Positions 17,386 through 28,530 of a stretch of DNA of 28,650 bases are shown here, piece by piece. The position numbers and the translations under genes are program-made. The notes under the pieces were generated by a model. It had not been told where the DNA came from. It saw only the letters and a list, made by a program, of their open reading frames with translations, and did not search any database. The stretch comes from a virus (taxonomy: Duplodnaviria > Caudoviricetes), in the IMG/VR virus record IMGVR_UViG_3300032225_002032, positions 1-28,650 of that record. One strand, 5' to 3'. Position 1 is the first letter of the stretch; each line of letters opens with the position of its first letter.

Positions 17386-17667
17386 GTACAGAAGTACAGA
17401 AATTATGCCCAAAACAGGCCGTTTCTGTACCGTTTCCCCGTTGTTTCCGGTGTCTCTGGTCTTTCTCTAAATCGTTTATATCATAGGTTTTACGGCTATT
17501 TCCTTCCGGCTTTTTCCAAGGGGACAAGGGGTTTCCTAAACCGGGGGTCGTAGGTTCGAATCCTACCGGGTGTATTTCCGCAAGTCCTTTGAAAACAATG
17601 GTTTGTGGCGAGTCTACTGCGAGTTGGTTTGTCCGTCAAATGGCCGAAATTTCTGTACGGTACAGAA
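17386..17667. repeat. GTACAGAA repeats, probable integrase arm-type sites flanking attP
   Basis: GTACAGAA at 17386, 17394, 17660; reverse TTCTGTAC at 17423, 17651. Confidence 0.7.
17530..17574 (+). mobile_element. attP core: 3' half of tRNA-Arg(CCT)
   Basis: Anticodon loop TTCCTAA (17533-17539), T-arm GTAGG-TTCGAAT-CCTAC, acceptor 3' strand CGGGTGT-A; no 5' half; next to the integrase. Confidence 0.88.
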
Positions 17668-17670
17668 TCC

Positions 17671-18846
17671 ATGCTACCTAAGCTTTGCAGACATCGATCA
17701 AAAGGCCGGGCGTATGTCACGCTTCCCGGCAAAAAAGTCATCTATTTGGGCGCTTGGCCCGATGCCGATAATCCGCCTCCGCCCGATGTGGTTGCGCAAT
17801 ATAAGGTGATTGTGGGGCGGCTTTTGACCGATCAGCCTCCCCTGGCGGAGATGGATGGACGGGTTAGCGTTGAGGAATTGGTGGGCCTGTTTCTGGAAAG
17901 CCAGCGGGAAAGCATCGACTTTTCCGCCTATCGTGGGGCGCTTTATTCTGTACTGATTCTGTACGGATCGATTCCGGCGGAGGAGTTTGGACCAAACAAG
18001 CTGCGAGCGGTCCAGGAATATTTGGTCAAAACTCCGACCCGGGGAAAGCCCCGCACCCGGTCCGGGATCAATATCACCCTGCGCCGGATTCGCCGGTGCT
18101 GGTCCTGGGGCGTGAGCCGGGAGCTTGTCCCCGAATCGGTGAGCCGGGCGCTCGGCACGGTCGATCCGTTGCGGTTACGAAAATCCAGCGCGCCCGAATC
18201 CAAACCCCGCAAGGCCGTCAATCCGGAAGTGGTCGAGAAAACGGTTCCCTTTTTGCCGCCGCACATTGTCGCCATGATCCGCCTCCAACAGCTCACCGCG
18301 ATGAGGCCCGGCGAGGTGACCCAGATCACGACAGGCGAAATCGATCGGCGTCAAAAGGGCGCATGGTTTTATTGTCCCGAGCAGCACAAAAATGCCCACC
18401 GGGGCAAGGGCCGGGCAATTGCCCTGGGACCCAAAGCGATCGAGATCATCACGCCATGGCTGCGGGCCGATCCGGAAAAACCGATCTTTTCGCCAGCGGA
18501 ACGGGTGGTCTTTTTGCGGGAAACGCAACGGGCCAAACGCAAATCCAAAGTCCCGCCCAGCCAGGAAGAGCGCAAGGTCGCCGACCCCAAACGCAAGCCC
18601 GGCGAAAGCTACGACACCCGCTCCTATGGACGGGCAATCATGCGGGTTTGCCAGCGGGAGGGGATCGAGATCTGGTCGCCCAACCAGCTCCGGAAATTGG
18701 CCATCAACTTGGCCGCCAACCGGGGCGGCAAACAGCGCGCCCAGGCATTTGCCGGACATCTCGATTCGGAAACCACCGAGCGCTTCTATCTGGAACAGGA
18801 TCGGCAATTGGCAGCCGAGGCGGCAAACCTCGTTGAGGGGCGATAA
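17671..18846 (+). CDS. int: Tyrosine integrase
   Basis: Catalytic set AMRPGE(R), HK, PNQLR, AGH, TTERFY(Y); N-terminal arm-binding segment GRAYVTLPGKKVIYLG. Confidence 0.93.
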   Translation: MLPKLCRHRSKGRAYVTLPGKKVIYLGAWPDADNPPPPDVVAQYKVIVGRLLTDQPPLAEMDGRVSVEELVGLFLESQRESIDFSAYRGALYSVLILYGSIPAEEFGPNKLRAVQEYLVKTPTRGKPRTRSGINITLRRIRRCWSWGVSRELVPESVSRALGTVDPLRLRKSSAPESKPRKAVNPEVVEKTVPFLPPHIVAMIRLQQLTAMRPGEVTQITTGEIDRRQKGAWFYCPEQHKNAHRGKGRAIALGPKAIEIITPWLRADPEKPIFSPAERVVFLRETQRAKRKSKVPPSQEERKVADPKRKPGESYDTRSYGRAIMRVCQREGIEIWSPNQLRKLAINLAANRGGKQRAQAFAGHLDSETTERFYLEQDRQLAAEAANLVEGR

Positions 18847-20046: not shown

Positions 20047-20250
20047 ATGCTTGTGCTATCACGGAAGGTTGGCGAGCGGATCAAGGTCGGCGAAAACATT
20101 TGGATCTCCATCGAGGAGGTCGACCGGGGCAAAGTCCGCGTCGGCATCGAAGCGCCCAAGGCTGTCCCGATTTTGCGGGAGGAGCTGAGCGCCTCGGCAT
20201 TGGACGAGGGGCCCGTCGAAACGGTTTGGGGTCGGGTCGAGATCGGGTGA
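20047..20250 (+). CDS. csrA: Carbon storage regulator CsrA/RsmA homolog
   Basis: MLVLSRKVGERIKVG...KVRVGIEAPKAVPILREEL. Confidence 0.95.
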   Translation: MLVLSRKVGERIKVGENIWISIEEVDRGKVRVGIEAPKAVPILREELSASALDEGPVETVWGRVEIG

Positions 20251-20253
20251 TTT

Positions 20254-20376
20254 GGCAGGAAGGGCATGGCTCGGTTGGGACTGGCATGGCGGGGCAGGGT
20301 TTGGCAGGCAGGGCCTGGCAAGGCCTGGCAGGGCGAGGCATGGCGGGGCGGGGCTAGGCAGGGCTAGGCAGGGTGA
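20254..20376 (+). repeat. GGY-NN pentamer array 1 (2 units, 9+14 pentamers); putative guide ncRNA
   Basis: Strict 5-nt period GGC/GGT/GGA + 2 variable nt; phase reset by GGCA at 20254 and 20303. Confidence 0.9.
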
Positions 20377-20420
20377 TAAGGCCAGATGGGGCGTACCGGG
20401 TTCGAATCCCGGCTTATCAG
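20374..20420 (+). ncRNA. tRNA-like minihelix (acceptor stem + T-arm) at the 3' end of array 1
   Basis: TGATAAG/CTTATCA 7-bp stem stacked on CCGGG-TTCGAAT-CCCGG; only 15 nt where D and anticodon arms would be. Confidence 0.7.
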
Positions 20421-20461: not shown

Positions 20462-21037
20462 ATGAACATCAGGGTTACATTGCAAGGCACAAGTCCACTT
20501 CTCATGCACAATCCACAAATGGTGGATCCGGAATTCGAAATCAATAGGGAGATCAAGGCCCTTACTTCGAAACGGAAAAAGACCGATGAGGATCTGAAAA
20601 ATATTGCCCGGCTGGAATGGTATGGCGGGCTGTATCAAAGCGACGGCGTGATCGTCCAACCGACCGCCAAAGCCAGAAAATGTATTGTCAACACGGCCCG
20701 AATCAGCAAGCTCGGCAAGGCCGTCGAGCGGGCCATCAGTTTTTCCGATGTCTATGTTCCGCTGGTTTACCAGGGGCCAAAAACAATTGACGAAATCTGG
20801 AAGTCTGGCAACTTTGTCTCCCGGCTCTCGGTCGGAGTCAATGGAAAACGGATCATGCGGGTCCGCCCTTCGTTTTCCCCATGGGCCATGCAAATTGATG
20901 GCCTGTTTGTCGAGGATGCCGGTTTGAACTTTGACGAACTGGTCCGGGTTGTGGAGCTCGCCGGTCAGGTCGAAGGGATTGGGGATAATCGAATCAACGG
21001 CTATGGCCGCTTTACAGGAAAGGTAGTGCAACTTTGA
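20462..21037 (+). CDS. Stand-alone RAMP/Cas7-like protein (191 aa)
   Basis: N-terminal IRVTLQGTSPLLMH strand, RVRPSF..W, C-terminal Gly-rich loop GIGDNRINGYGRF; SD AGGGG. Confidence 0.75.
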   Translation: MNIRVTLQGTSPLLMHNPQMVDPEFEINREIKALTSKRKKTDEDLKNIARLEWYGGLYQSDGVIVQPTAKARKCIVNTARISKLGKAVERAISFSDVYVPLVYQGPKTIDEIWKSGNFVSRLSVGVNGKRIMRVRPSFSPWAMQIDGLFVEDAGLNFDELVRVVELAGQVEGIGDNRINGYGRFTGKVVQL

Positions 21038-21531
21038 TACGCCAAAATCGCTTTCGCAATACAAGAGCCTGTGGCAGGTCTGATTCTCAGGTGATCATTG
21101 ATCTGGTGCGCAACGCCGACCCAGGAAAGATTTTTACCTTTGACGAACTGACAACCGTTTTGGCCGAAGGGTCCGCACGGCCCTGGGATCTTGATGGCAT
21201 TCGCGCAGCCACCTCCCGGGCAACCTTTCGGCTTTCCAGGGAGACGCAGCGAGCCCTGGTCAGCGTGCGTGGAGTCGGCTACAAGGTGGCTCAGGCCAGC
21301 GAGCATACGATGGTCGCCAACGACCGCAAGCGCAAAGCGGATCGGCAACTCTCCAAAGGGTTGGCCGTCCTGCAAAATGTCAGGTGGGAGGAGATGGACG
21401 AGAACCAGCGCAATGCCCATCAGGGTCAACTCATGGTGATGAGCGCCATTGTCTCCCAACAAAAAAGTTTTGAGCGTCGTATGTCCCGGGTTGAAGACGC
21501 AATCAAAAAAGGTCTCCGACCTGCTGAATAG
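21034..21531 (+). CDS. Winged-helix-like/coiled-coil partner of the RAMP protein
   Basis: TTG start overlaps the RAMP stop; FTFDEL...RL....LVSVRGVGYKV resembles an OmpR-type wing. Confidence 0.6.
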   Translation: MIRQNRFRNTRACGRSDSQVIIDLVRNADPGKIFTFDELTTVLAEGSARPWDLDGIRAATSRATFRLSRETQRALVSVRGVGYKVAQASEHTMVANDRKRKADRQLSKGLAVLQNVRWEEMDENQRNAHQGQLMVMSAIVSQQKSFERRMSRVEDAIKKGLRPAE

Positions 21532-21840
21532 GCAGGCGCGGCTGGGCGAGGCTCGGCGAGGCGCGGCAGGGCCGGGCGAGGCGGGCGGGGCAGGGCGGGG
21601 CAAGGTTCGGCAGGGACTGGCGTGGCCGGGTTCGGCAGGGCATGGCTTTACTTGGCAGGCGGTGCAGGGCGTGGCGAGGAAGGACGGGGTTTTGCATGGT
21701 CAGGCAAGGTTTGGCAGGCACGGCACGGCCTGGCCGGGCCAGGCTAGGTACGGCAAGGCGTGGCTCGGCGAGGCTTGGCAGGGCAGGCAGGGCGTGGTTT
21801 GGCCAGGCATGGCAGGGCGTGGCGCGGCAAGGCAGGGTGT
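21531..21840 (+). repeat. GGY-NN pentamer array 2 (5 units: 9, 13, 11, 13, 11 pentamers); putative guide ncRNA
   Basis: Same 5-nt period; delimiters GGCA/GGCG at 21531, 21580, 21654, 21713, 21782; ends in a T tract. Confidence 0.9.
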
Positions 21841-21870: not shown

Positions 21871-22542
21871 ATGAGTACGGAAATTATGGAAGTTGGGCAG
21901 GCGGGGCAATCGCCCAAGGAATTGATGAGGCTGTACGAGTCGAGGGCGGAATCGTGCCGGGAGATCATCCGGCAAACCGCCCAGAACATCGGGGGCCGGG
22001 ATCACATCCGGGTCGAGGGGTGGCAGGCATTGGCGGCGGTTTCCGGGTGCTCCGTCTCCGTCGCATTGGTCGAATCGGTCGAGGGGGGCGTGCGCTCGGT
22101 CGCCGAGGTCAAGCGTCAATCTGACGGGACCGTCCTTGCCTCGGCGGAGGGATTTGTTGGTGATGATGAAATGATGTGGCGCAAGCGGCCTTTGTTTGCG
22201 CGTCGGGCGATGGCCCAGACCCGGGCGACCAGTCGGGCCTGTCGGGTGGCGTTTTCGCATCTGGTCGTTTTGCTCAAGGATCCAAACCTTTCCACATGTC
22301 CGGCGGAGGAAATGGACACCGAGCCGCACGACCAGCCACCACCGCCGCCCGTGCGAAGTATTCAGGCGGGGCCCAGCAAGGAGGACTGGGAGAAAATTGC
22401 CGGGCTGATGCAGGCGACCGGCACGACCGGGGAAGACCTGGAAAGGAAGTTTGGGCCAGCAAGGCAGCTTAGCGCCGCAAAGGCCCGCGAGGTGATTATG
22501 TGGTTGCAAGCAATCGACAAGGAAAAGGAGAACGCGCGATGA
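21871..22542 (+). CDS. Putative single-strand annealing/recombination protein
   Basis: SD AGGAGG; VEGWQ, AMAQTRA.SRA.R and PAEEM motifs; early-region position. Confidence 0.5.
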   Translation: MSTEIMEVGQAGQSPKELMRLYESRAESCREIIRQTAQNIGGRDHIRVEGWQALAAVSGCSVSVALVESVEGGVRSVAEVKRQSDGTVLASAEGFVGDDEMMWRKRPLFARRAMAQTRATSRACRVAFSHLVVLLKDPNLSTCPAEEMDTEPHDQPPPPPVRSIQAGPSKEDWEKIAGLMQATGTTGEDLERKFGPARQLSAAKAREVIMWLQAIDKEKENAR

Positions 22543-23534: not shown

Positions 23535-24401
23535 ATGGGGGAGGCGAAAGTGAGCAGTTGGATTAAGTTTCGGACCAGCCTGATTAACCATCCAAAAGTT
23601 GTGCGCATTGCGTGCGCAATTTGTGCGCAAGATGTGCGCAGAATGTGCACAGCAATTGGCGCAATTGTGCAGACATGGGCCATGGCGGATGCCCACGCAG
23701 ATGGGGAATGTCTCCCTGGAATGTCTTTTGAAGCGCTCGATTTGCTCCTTGGACTGCCAGGATTTGCCAAAGCGATGGCCGAAGTTGGTTGGTTGGACGA
23801 GCGGGACGGATCGCTCTATCTCCCGAATTACCAAGAACATAACGGAAATACGGCCAAGCGTCGGGCGCAAAATAACACCCGCATGAAATCTGTGCGCAAA
23901 GTGTGCGCAAAGTGTGCGCAAGATGTGCGCAAGTGTGTGTGTAATTTGTGTACCAAGAGAGAGAGTAAGAATAAGAATAGTAATCCTAACGGATTACTCC
24001 CCCTAACCCCCACGAAGAAGTCGGCGAAGTTTGATCCTGTTGTCGACATCGAGGCACCGTTTGCATCCAAAGAATGGGCGGAGGCGTGGGCCAAATGGTG
24101 TGCGCATCGCTGTGAGCTCAGGAAGCCCCTGACCCGGCAGGCGACCGAATCGCAGCTTGCCGAGTTGGCCCGCATGGGTGAAGAGCGAGCCCTTGCCGCA
24201 ATCCATCACAGCCTGCGCGGAGGGTGGCAGGGGATCTTTGAGCCCAAGGCGGAGAAGCCCGAAGGATTCGGTGCGGGCTATGGTGTACGGCCCAGCGCCA
24301 CCGAACGGGCCGCCCAGACCGCCGAGCGCCTGATCAGCGGCAAATCCGCGATCGCCAACCAGATCTTTGCCGAACTGCAAGCGATGGAGATGGGCCAATG
24401 A
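23535..24401 (+). CDS. Phage replication initiator (replisome organizer-like)
   Basis: WIK....L..HPKV N-terminus, GF.KAM.EVGWL, C-terminal W..W..HR..LRKPLT...GWQGIF; internal iterons. Confidence 0.75.
   Translation: MGEAKVSSWIKFRTSLINHPKVVRIACAICAQDVRRMCTAIGAIVQTWAMADAHADGECLPGMSFEALDLLLGLPGFAKAMAEVGWLDERDGSLYLPNYQEHNGNTAKRRAQNNTRMKSVRKVCAKCAQDVRKCVCNLCTKRESKNKNSNPNGLLPLTPTKKSAKFDPVVDIEAPFASKEWAEAWAKWCAHRCELRKPLTRQATESQLAELARMGEERALAAIHHSLRGGWQGIFEPKAEKPEGFGAGYGVRPSATERAAQTAERLISGKSAIANQIFAELQAMEMGQ
23600..23673 (+). repeat. Iteron cluster 1 (11-bp period GTGCGCA)
   Basis: GTGCGCA at 23601, 23612, 23623, 23634; variants at 23645 and 23667. Confidence 0.8.
23891..23983 (+). repeat. Iteron cluster 2 plus purine/AT-rich tract; probable origin
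   Basis: GTGCGCAA at 23892, 23903, 23914, 23925, then AGAGAGAGTAAGAATAAGAATAGTAA. Confidence 0.8.
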
Positions 24402-25172: not shown

Positions 25173-26228
25173 ATGAAATTTGAGCCAGCGAAAATCCTTC
25201 CGATGGTGGCCGCATGTGCCGCAATTGCCGAAAGATCGATGAAAGCCAAAGCCATCGCCGTGCAGGGCAATGCCGAGTTTTTTGGCGCAACCGACCAGGA
25301 AACGACGCTTGTCAGCGCCCGCTTTGATGTTGCTGATGATTGGGTGCTGGTTCCGGCCAGCAAGCTTTTGAGCGCGCTTAAATCGATTGGCAGCGCCGAG
25401 GCGGATTGGGAGCTGTTGGCCGAGTCGGTCGTGATCACGGCAAAGGGCGTGCGCTATAGCCTGCCGATCATGCCGAAGGGGGATTTTCCGTCGCTGGATG
25501 CGATTGGAGCCGAGGATCCCGAAAGTCGCAAGCGCTACGGGGTGCAGGCCGCGCCGCTGATCGAGGCGATCGAAACGGTCGCACCGTGCGTGGCGACGCA
25601 GAGCGCCAAATATACGATGATGGGCATTTGTCTGGAGCTCGGCCAAGTGGTCGCAACCGATGGGCGCAGGCTGGCCGTCGCCAAGTATCCGGTCGAAGGC
25701 GTGCAGGCATTTTCGGCGGTGATTCCGGCCAAGCTGGGCCCGATTCTACGCGGGATATTTGGCGACGCCGAGGAGACGATGACGCTCTCGATTGGGACAA
25801 ATATGGTTCACTTCTTTGGAAGTGAGGCGATTTTGTCAACCAGACAAATCGAGGGAAAATATCCGGATTGGTCGGCGATCATGCCGCGCATCATCGCCCA
25901 TAAGATCACGACGAATACGGCGGATCTGATCGAGGCGATCCAGCGGGTCGGATTTATGGCGGACCGTGAGGAAAAGCGGGTCAACTTTGCGCTGGGCCAG
26001 GGACAGCTTACCCTGACCGCAAAGACTCCGATCGATGGCGAGGCCTTTGCCTCAATGGATTTTCCCTGGGATGGGGAGCCAATGGAGATCTCCCTCAATG
26101 CGGCGTATCTGTTGCCGCTTTTGAAGGGGATTAAGGGCGAGGCGTTTACGCTGGGGATCAACAGCCCGGGCAAACCGATCGTCCTACAGGGCGAGGGATT
26201 CCAGGGTCTTTTAATGCCGATGTCGTGA
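25173..26228 (+). CDS. dnaN: DNA polymerase III beta sliding clamp homolog
   Basis: ATDQE, DFP, VATDGRRLA, IEGKYPDW, NAAYL, LLMPM motifs; 351 aa; SD TAAGGAG. Confidence 0.92.
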   Translation: MKFEPAKILPMVAACAAIAERSMKAKAIAVQGNAEFFGATDQETTLVSARFDVADDWVLVPASKLLSALKSIGSAEADWELLAESVVITAKGVRYSLPIMPKGDFPSLDAIGAEDPESRKRYGVQAAPLIEAIETVAPCVATQSAKYTMMGICLELGQVVATDGRRLAVAKYPVEGVQAFSAVIPAKLGPILRGIFGDAEETMTLSIGTNMVHFFGSEAILSTRQIEGKYPDWSAIMPRIIAHKITTNTADLIEAIQRVGFMADREEKRVNFALGQGQLTLTAKTPIDGEAFASMDFPWDGEPMEISLNAAYLLPLLKGIKGEAFTLGINSPGKPIVLQGEGFQGLLMPMS

Positions 26229-26299: not shown

Positions 26300-26678
26300 T
26301 GTGGAATTTGTTCCGGCGCTCGGCCCAGGGGAAACCGGGCCGATCCTCCAGCGGCATCTGATCGCCTCCAGCGGACCATGGGTGATCGGGAAAAGCAAAA
26401 AGGCGGATGGCCTGTTTGTGTTTCCTGCCGCCAACCTTGACCAACCGATTTGTTATGTGTTCGATTCGGTCGCCCAGAACGCGACATTTTTGGCAAATTC
26501 GTGGGAAGATCAAAAGCGCTTGCTTGCCTCGGTTTTGCGTTACAAGGGTATTTTTGGCGAGCTGGCCAGGCAGATCCGGGCCTCGACCATCAGCGACGAT
26601 GGCGAGGGAAATGTGGCTTTTTTCCCGGAGATTCCCGCCTCATTACTAATCCAGCTGGAAGAGATCGCAAAACTGTGA
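26292..26678 (+). CDS. Hypothetical protein
   Basis: SD GAGG, ATG 26292; GTGA overlap with the next gene. Confidence 0.6.
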   Translation: MADVEFVPALGPGETGPILQRHLIASSGPWVIGKSKKADGLFVFPAANLDQPICYVFDSVAQNATFLANSWEDQKRLLASVLRYKGIFGELARQIRASTISDDGEGNVAFFPEIPASLLIQLEEIAKL

Positions 26679-27472
26679 AATTATGTATGCATCACAAGGG
26701 CGAGCTTTGGGCGACGGCAAACAAACTCAGCGAGGAACAACAGAAATTGGTCACCGATAATTTGCCGTTGGCATATCACTATTGCAAAAAAAGGCCGATT
26801 CCTGGCCTTGATCGGGACGAGAACGAATCCGAAGCGCTCTTTTGTCTGACCCGGTCGGCGGCAAATTTCAAGCCCGAACTGGGTTTCCGCTTTGCCACCT
26901 ATGCCTGGAGCGTTTGGCTCAATCATCGAAAAGACGCGCACCGGATTATCAAAATGGAAACGAAGGGATACGGCACAATTCAGGAGCGTTTCAACGGGGC
27001 CAGCATGTGGTTAATCGATCCGGTCGATGCCCAGCCCGGACCAGACCAGATCGCCGCCGAAAAGGACGAGCTTGCCGAAAAACTCAAAACCTTTTCGGTG
27101 CTCGATCTGCGGGCAAAGGAGATCCTTGAGAAAAGGATGCAGGGCAAATCGCTCCAGGAGATCGGCACCGAAATGAACATCACCCGGGAGCGGGTCCGGC
27201 AAATCGAAAAATCGGCTATATATCGGATCCAGTATTTGTCGGGATCGGACATCGACACGGAAAATCCCCTGATCAACGAATACCACGAAATTCGGGAACG
27301 CCGCAACGATGCGACCAAGGAGCATCAAAGGAAAGTCGCCGCCATTAAGGCGATCCGGCGGGAATTTCCGGAGTATGGGTCTGTCAAAATCGCCAAGCAG
27401 GTCGGGTGCTCGGTGAAACTGGCCCGGACGCACATGGCGCTTAAAAAACACAAAAAGCCGGTGACAGCATGA
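26675..27472 (+). CDS. Sigma-70 family RNA polymerase sigma factor
   Basis: Region 2 LVTDNLPLA...FKPELGFRFATYA; region 4 KSLQEIG.EMNITRERVRQIEKSA. Confidence 0.88.
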   Translation: MKLCMHHKGELWATANKLSEEQQKLVTDNLPLAYHYCKKRPIPGLDRDENESEALFCLTRSAANFKPELGFRFATYAWSVWLNHRKDAHRIIKMETKGYGTIQERFNGASMWLIDPVDAQPGPDQIAAEKDELAEKLKTFSVLDLRAKEILEKRMQGKSLQEIGTEMNITRERVRQIEKSAIYRIQYLSGSDIDTENPLINEYHEIRERRNDATKEHQRKVAAIKAIRREFPEYGSVKIAKQVGCSVKLARTHMALKKHKKPVTA

Positions 27473-27738: not shown

Positions 27739-28042
27739 CGGCTTGGCCGTAATGATCCGCTTGGCTGGTTTGCCTGAACCGGTCAGGGAGCATAAATTTC
27801 ATCCCGTCAGAAAGTGGAAGATAGATCTGGCTTGGCCGGAGGAGAAATTGGCGGTTGAGATTGAGGGCGGAGTCTGGAGCAAAGGACGCCACATTCGGCC
27901 AAAGGGTTTCCTTGGGGATCTGGAAAAATATAATACATTAACGGTCCTTGGTTGGGCACTACTCCGAATTACGCCGCAACAGGTGCGCACCGGGGAGGCG
28001 TTGACGCTGATCGAGGAATGGTTTGGCCGGGGGGGCAAATGA
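27722..28042 (+). CDS. Vsr/DUF559-like PD-(D/E)XK endonuclease
   Basis: EHKFHPVRKWKIDLAWP..KLAVEIEGG.W..GRH......D.EKYN....LGW.LLR.T. Confidence 0.85.
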   Translation: MIDWSDGLAVMIRLAGLPEPVREHKFHPVRKWKIDLAWPEEKLAVEIEGGVWSKGRHIRPKGFLGDLEKYNTLTVLGWALLRITPQQVRTGEALTLIEEWFGRGGK

Positions 28043-28530
28043 TGGCGCAACTGACTTTTTTTGATATTCCGGAGGAGCCGAGGAAGCTGGCCCGTCATGT
28101 GGTGTGGCGACGGCGTGTCGCCCGCATCATCCAGACCCAGGACGATGCGCCGCTGTTTTTTCGGCGAGAGCGGGGCAGCCGGTTGACCCGGGAGGAACAG
28201 GACCAGCTTGCCGCGTATGTGCCCTTGATCCGAGCGACTGCAAGGCGGGCGCACTTGCGGGGCATCCGCATCGATGACCTGGAAGGGGAGCTGATCGCCT
28301 ACGCCGTCCACATCATGCCGAGGTTTGACCCGACCCGGGCCAAGCTGGGATCGCTGCTCAGAGTGGCCCTATCAAACAAAATCAAAAACATGATCCGGGA
28401 CAGCGCCAAGAAGGTCAGACTTCGGACCGACCAGGGCGAGCGATTGGCGGAGATCGCTTGCTCGGACACCGCTGGCATTCAGGCGGTCGATGACCTGGAC
28501 GAGCTGGAGGCGTGGGCGCGTGCGGTGTAA
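28039..28530 (+). CDS. Sigma-70 region-2-like protein lacking region 4
   Basis: YVPLIRATARR...IDDLE.E......MPRFDPTR.....L...L.NKIKNMIR. Confidence 0.55.
   Translation: MMAQLTFFDIPEEPRKLARHVVWRRRVARIIQTQDDAPLFFRRERGSRLTREEQDQLAAYVPLIRATARRAHLRGIRIDDLEGELIAYAVHIMPRFDPTRAKLGSLLRVALSNKIKNMIRDSAKKVRLRTDQGERLAEIACSDTAGIQAVDDLDELEAWARAV

Follow-up and report, generated by a model that had tools for sequence, protein, structure and literature searches.

The window analysed here, a 28,650-nt stretch of viral DNA, carries a locus with a vipr gene, a vap1-like gene and arrays of GGY-NN pentamers that, judged from its sequence, is a VIPR system. In the downstream array, the predicted guide that we call unit B decodes to the core of a P-loop, and its target is probably a Walker A motif, that is, the P-loop-coding stretch of an ATPase gene. 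The system is a further member of VIPR, with one candidate P-loop target that is still putative.

A VIPR locus in a temperate phage

The locus comprises the following features.

20254..20376, plus strand: upstream guide array of two units
20374..20419, plus strand: tRNA-like tail after the upstream array, with a 7-bp outer stem, a small hairpin and a T-arm with a TTCGAAT loop
20462..21037, plus strand: vipr gene, 191 aa, RAMP fold
21034..21531, plus strand: vap1-like accessory gene, start codon uncertain
21531..21840, plus strand: downstream staggered guide array of units A, B, degenerate C, D and E with 1-nt overlaps, followed by a T run

Vipr is 34% identical over 191 aa to a phiSUSP1 protein (E-value of 1e-33). 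Eight residues with published functions (H17, K33, R39, G87, K88, R138, D177 and R179) are identical in the two proteins, while the window protein differs at W178 (to N), E71/M72 (to A/K) and K82 (to R, conservative). As the SUSP1 record is labelled ‘hypothetical protein’, we took it to be Vipr because its residue numbers agree with those in the available part of the structure preprint. The ORF at 20462-21037 had no Pfam match. Its structure model (pLDDT of 93.4) resembles Csm3/type VII RAMP chains at a TM of about 0.5, and the protein has the make-up of a small RAMP with a G-loop and a thumb. A vap accessory gene adjoins vipr on a weak resemblance, its product sharing 25% over 83 aa (E-value of 1e-5) with the product of the gene that follows vipr in SUSP1.

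Arrays of about 9-16 GGY/NN repeats flank these genes. The guides differ wholesale in the sister phages L001, L135 and L002, whose Vipr proteins are 98, 98 and 88% identical to that of the window, so that among close relatives the NN positions are hypervariable and GGY is conserved. All that the arrays of L001 and the window have in common is the degenerate unit C and a few terminal positions. Unit C (21658-21712) is nearly identical in L001 and absent from L135, and may be a constant element with a role in structure or processing, not a guide. Self-targeting was absent: no window guide of at least nine NN had a listed top match with a 1-nt skip above 19/28 or 13/18 in the window. Unit D matched the phage’s own integrase at 9/22. 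Unit B matched the Walker A of the phage’s own TerL at only 12/26 bases, in agreement with the preliminary description, which had set this protein aside as a target.

Several database homologues of Vipr, including P0002, P0003, P0005, P0006 and other cluster members, are 251-347 aa long. Their length probably comes from gene calls that take in the upstream guide array; in the window, too, an open frame from 20252 spans that array.

The window belongs to a virus record with a terminase, portal, capsid, integrase, CsrA, beta clamp and sigma factors, and the carrier phage is temperate and HK97-like. The genes for CsrA, the DNA polymerase III beta clamp and two sigma-70-like proteins lie at 20047-20250, 25173-26228, 26450-27472 and 27952-28530. 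The replication initiator gene contains iteron-like 11-base tandem repeats at 23584-23662 and 23875-23942. One further feature bears on the host.

17530..17577, plus strand: likely attP core, the 3' part of tRNA-Arg(CCT), beside the integrase gene at 17605-18846

A 40-base stretch beside the integrase matched four loci in genome_contigs, three of which are complete tRNA-Arg(CCT) genes, and L121, labelled Gemmataceae, matched the attP core at 48/48 positions. Because the att-matching genomes G006, G007 and G008 all fall within one family list of 252 genomes, we place the host in that family; the phage likely infects Gemmataceae. Querying with the integrase returned no viral relatives and no plasmid match. 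The attP-like core in tRNA-Arg(CCT) also concerns L122, L123 and L125. At this site L122 carries a different prophage with an integrase, DnaB and a homologue of the window gene 21871-22542, which is a possible competitor.

Matches of unit D and of a sister guide

Two guides of this clade, one from the window and one from L001, have matches at conserved coding motifs.

21717..21781, plus strand: unit D, reads TTLR[HQ][Y*]T[KN]VS[DE], with 20/22 on the catalytic-tyrosine motif of an island integrase in G006
22282..22313, minus strand: site of the sister guide, within gene 21871-22542; the L001 guide matches at 18/18 over nine NN and at 20/22 in full

Searching 252 host-family genomes with the first 11 NN of unit D at up to two mismatches gave a single match, located in the att-matching genome G006, and none in the control. 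This match (L408:5347-5385) lies in frame, and the skipped base is the wobble base; its 20/22 becomes 20/26 with the last two NN. The matched integrase is a Phage_integrase-family gene, with a DUF3987 gene and a tRNA-Cys as its neighbours in the G006 island. The number of such matches expected by chance is 0.001-0.004 in the three att-matching genomes and 0.1-0.4 in all 252. The remaining 41 of the 42 integrase sites scored only 6-15 of 22, and searching for integrases that carry the exact unit D motif gave one candidate protein, at 44%. Contigs from four runs containing this phage or its relatives left the G006 island uncovered, a lack of coverage that proves nothing.

The last long guide of L001 (L001:1795-1849) scores 18/18 over nine NN against both the window and L135. 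Its site is antisense to gene 21871-22542, again with the skip on the wobble base, and the match has an E-value of 3.7e-5 per guide (27 guides), the best control reaching 0.065. In L001 itself the site is recoded (PNLSTTPVEEM versus PNLSTCPAEEM, plus a serine codon swap) and scores 15/22, and we interpret the pair as likely kin competition with self-avoidance. The targeted gene belongs to PHROG 19042, of unknown function; similar motifs would point to a putative single-strand annealing role. Since the last two NN match poorly for both unit D and the L001 guide, the terminal NN units may not specify the target. No credible target emerged for units A, E, U1 or U2, and for U2 and E there was none in five genomes.

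Unit B and its candidate target

The guide at the centre of this analysis adjoins unit A in the downstream array.

21584..21648, plus strand: unit B, predicted vrRNA guide of 13 GGY-NN pentamers, its first base shared with unit A

Its NN series is GG AG GG AA TC AG CT GT CG TC AG AT TT, and its scaffold triplets are GGY in 12 of 13 pentamers and GGA in one; the unit may run on to 21658 through one degenerate pentamer. With a one-base skip, the sense decode is G[RS]G[KN]S[RS]LVRS[RS][IM][FL] and the antisense decode [KN][IM]L[DE]RT[RS]L[DE][FL]PLP. Re-parsing 21584-21648 reproduced the sense decode of the preliminary description, which had recognised in it a Walker A motif or P-loop. That identification stands for the GxGK[ST] core. 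The full Walker A pattern, [AG]x4GK[ST] in PROSITE form, is not contained, as the unit begins two residues upstream of G-K. Unit B was absent from every other VIPR locus collected. Its B1, B10, B11 and B13 also occur in the otherwise different L001 unit of the same slot, so the variable part of unit B is mainly B2-B9, which is the motif.

Among 137 distinct natural units from 56 VIPR loci, GxGK[ST] occurs in one, and that one is unit B. Comparison with shuffled NN strings, suggested with the original decode, yielded GxGK[ST] in 0.51% of unit B shuffles and 0.10% of random 13-mers. For the extended form GxGK[ST][ST]hh these frequencies were 0.03% and 0.003%, and under clade-specific NN use with seven guides the two forms gave 0.006 and 8e-5. 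The core and hydrophobic helix start of unit B thus lie above the chance levels tested, for a motif selected post hoc. All four matches to GxGK[ST][ST]hh in 975 kb of unselected DNA, most of it from phages, were within long ORFs.

Together, vipr, the vap1-like gene and the GGY-NN arrays form a VIPR locus. We propose that its array is transcribed and, by the example of published staggered arrays, cut into guides at the 1-nt overlaps. Each pentamer would be bound by one Vipr and its NN would read two bases and skip one, as published for SUSP1 and as the sequence matches of the two guides above support. B1-B9 would then spell G-S-G-K-S-S-L-V-R, and synonymous changes would give no escape, since it is the wobble base that is skipped. 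The predicted Vipr filament would be led to the segment that codes for the P-loop of an ATPase, in a gene carried by a rival mobile element or a host island, and binding there would block transcription. Unit D and the published systems suggest, by analogy, that the target belongs to a rival element more probably than to a host defence gene. The earlier suggestion of guides aimed at slow-evolving coding sequence, such as the ATPase of a rival element or host defence gene, agrees with the guide nature of the units, the one-base skip and the conserved motifs matched by unit D and the L001 guide; the ATPase target and its owner were not found in the searches that follow.

A regular expression for 12 NN of unit B had no exact match in metagenome_contigs or genome_contigs, and ten NN (B1-B10) had none in viral_contigs (IMG/VR). 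B1-B8 gave 34 viral matches, of which 25 read as in-frame Walker A sites in nine groups. Pfam upheld eight of the nine groups on one representative each, covering 24 of the 34 records; of the other matches, seven were in short frames and two were unclassified. Upon extension, the top score of 22/26 fell in a frame interrupted by stops. On a Walker A the top score was 21/26, and in these incomplete collections and exact-only scans no Walker A had a near-full-length gapped match. B6-B13 had four viral matches (best 19/26), one of which runs in frame and antisense over eight codons of a real protein in L119, presumably HflX-like. Viral scans with seven NN covered at least 120 of about 130 matches for B5-B11 and at least 121 of about 200 for B1-4+9-11, and the best extension among the matches listed in both was 19/22. 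Among the matches listed in these viral scans, extension did not go beyond chance.

None of the 252 host-family genomes matched unit B at up to three mismatches, and B1-B10 at up to two mismatches had eight matches there versus 18 for a reversed control. Among those eight, two matches were exact over B1-B9, where 0.05-0.075 were expected; both are in-frame Walker A-type sites, and both reach only 19/26 in full. An ABC-ATPase/GNAT fusion (L127) was rejected as a target on this score despite its exact B1-B9, its homologues in G006 and G008 scoring 14 and 13, and L128 was likewise rejected at 19/26. Mismatch searches of five related virus records, the three att-matching genomes and five genomes with B1-9 revealed no target, and 45 virus records gave one match at three mismatches versus two in the control. 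Skips of 0, 2 and 3 yielded nothing at or above 75% in the loci compared, except the array itself. In the islands, 47 Walker-like sites near 41 integrases reached at most 16/26, and the Walker sites of island replicases do not fit unit B.

Of the natural DNA stretches that match the first eight or nine NN of unit B, roughly two-thirds to three-quarters belong to P-loop genes. Any Walker-like string would be expected to find such genes, and these matches do not show targeting by unit B. We favour a Walker A target on the strength of this P-loop share together with a neighbouring guide on a catalytic motif, after a discount for decayed guides and for the post hoc choice of motif.

A working guide with another kind of target would make the P-loop look coincidental. 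Its target would be a site of a rival phage or island that lies antisense, out of frame or outside coding sequence. Because the target of the L001 sister guide is antisense, an antisense reading of unit B is conceivable, and the L119 protein illustrates one. This explanation also draws on the B1-B8 viral matches in short frames or without classification, on positions 10-11, which no Walker family fits, and on the fact that the motif was chosen afterwards. We nevertheless regard it as unlikely, given the rarity of the motif under three nulls and the predominance of P-loops among real B1-B8 and B1-B9 matches.

Unit B might also be decayed or recombined and now without a target, like its degenerate neighbour unit C. 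The first and last NN positions that it shares with the L001 unit in the same slot would suit this idea, as would the failure to find a target for it or a credible one for A, E, U1 and U2. We consider such decay improbable, as nearly all of the scaffold triplets are GGY and a random string seldom produces the motif. Most guides of the sister phages are likewise without a found target, and therefore the absence reflects database coverage.

We also compared the decode with ATPase families, and no tested family fits all 13 positions. GpA-like terminases were rejected, with T5 in 118/118 and A11 in 115/118 homologues (two of 120 were dropped for lack of the anchor) and a best fit of 8/13. The nSTAND1 NTPases (PF20703), which have an immune role, are present in 61 of the 252 host-family genomes. 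In 29 host-family copies, B1-B9 give the commonest residue at all nine columns (V tied with L), and B12-B13 also fit. Conversely, A10 (27/29) and G11 (29/29) are not matched by unit B, and the best copy reaches 20/26. At an E-value of 1e-20, no nSTAND1 match was listed for G006, G007 or G008. We give little credence to unit B as a motif-level anti-defence guide whose first nine NN would read the nSTAND1-type P-loop consensus. One such guide could silence several host immune-like NTPase genes, and VIPR would then be a programmable weapon of counter-defence against the host and not only one against rival elements, a role that the preprint text does not describe.

The highest score for unit B came from one of 391 genomes in a class sample (G343), where it matches codons 4-16 of an AAA_22 ATPase gene at 23/26 (88%, above the 80% cut-off of the published work; control 0). 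Silencing of such a chromosomal host gene near its start is nevertheless very improbable. By chance, 0.04-0.09 matches are expected among the class genomes and a further 0.02-0.05 among the family genomes. The skip is out of codon register, hitting codon position 1 (offset 10), the three mismatches include both ends, the site is not on a Walker A, and G343 lies outside the list of 252 host-family genomes.

Comparison with published VIPR systems

In their available parts, the preprints already describe VIPR, its wobble-skipping logic, staggered arrays, recombinase targeting and the targeting of relatives with a low self-match (10.64898/2026.04.26.720920; 10.64898/2026.04.26.720927; 10.64898/2026.10.15.759431). 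With the VIPR system of Escherichia phage SUSP1, so far as the available parts describe it, the window shares the Vipr homologue at 34%, the vap1-like neighbour and arrays on both sides (10.64898/2026.04.26.720920; 10.64898/2026.04.26.720927), as well as the GGY-NN code, the 1-nt skip on the wobble base, rival-element targets and the lack of a self-match. The carrier differs, being here a temperate HK97-like phage with a likely Gemmataceae host. The guides differ too: those of the window overlap by 1 nt, whereas each SUSP1 guide carries a pseudoknot tail. The one-base overlap between units is like that of the staggered vrRNA arrays (legend of Fig. S18; 10.64898/2026.04.26.720920; 10.64898/2026.04.26.720927).

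SUSP1 silences the recombinase of the F5 satellite, and unit D similarly reads conserved recombinase codons of an integrated element (10.64898/2026.10.15.759431, available part). In that F5 system, too, relatives are targeted and the self-match is lower. The relatives’ targets described there are vipr and vrRNAs, whereas here the target is a non-VIPR gene. The words ‘Walker’ and ‘tRNA’ do not occur in the main text of the VIPR preprints, whose supplements may list such targets.

The window extends VIPR to a likely Planctomycete phage. It also adds sequence support for guides that bear on catalytic or conserved motifs, namely the integrase tyrosine, the sister-phage gene motif that is recoded in the guide-bearer’s own copy and, probably, the P-loop. 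If the target of unit B is a P-loop, guides could be read as peptides, which would predict target classes even where the target genomes have not been sequenced.

A last difference from SUSP1 is the tRNA-like tail after the upstream array. Rfam returned nothing meaningful and ARAGORN predicted no tRNA in the window. An outer stem and T-arm with a TTCGA loop occur near vipr in eight of the 84 loci examined (the window, L001, L135, L002:279-331, L394:51-101, L019:4270-4640, L007:4828-4886 and L039), in six of the eight directly after GGY-NN repeats. The folding z-scores of these tails are only -0.8 to -2.6, and the stem sequences differ in L394, L019 and L007. The tail could be an RNase P/Z processing signal for the guides.
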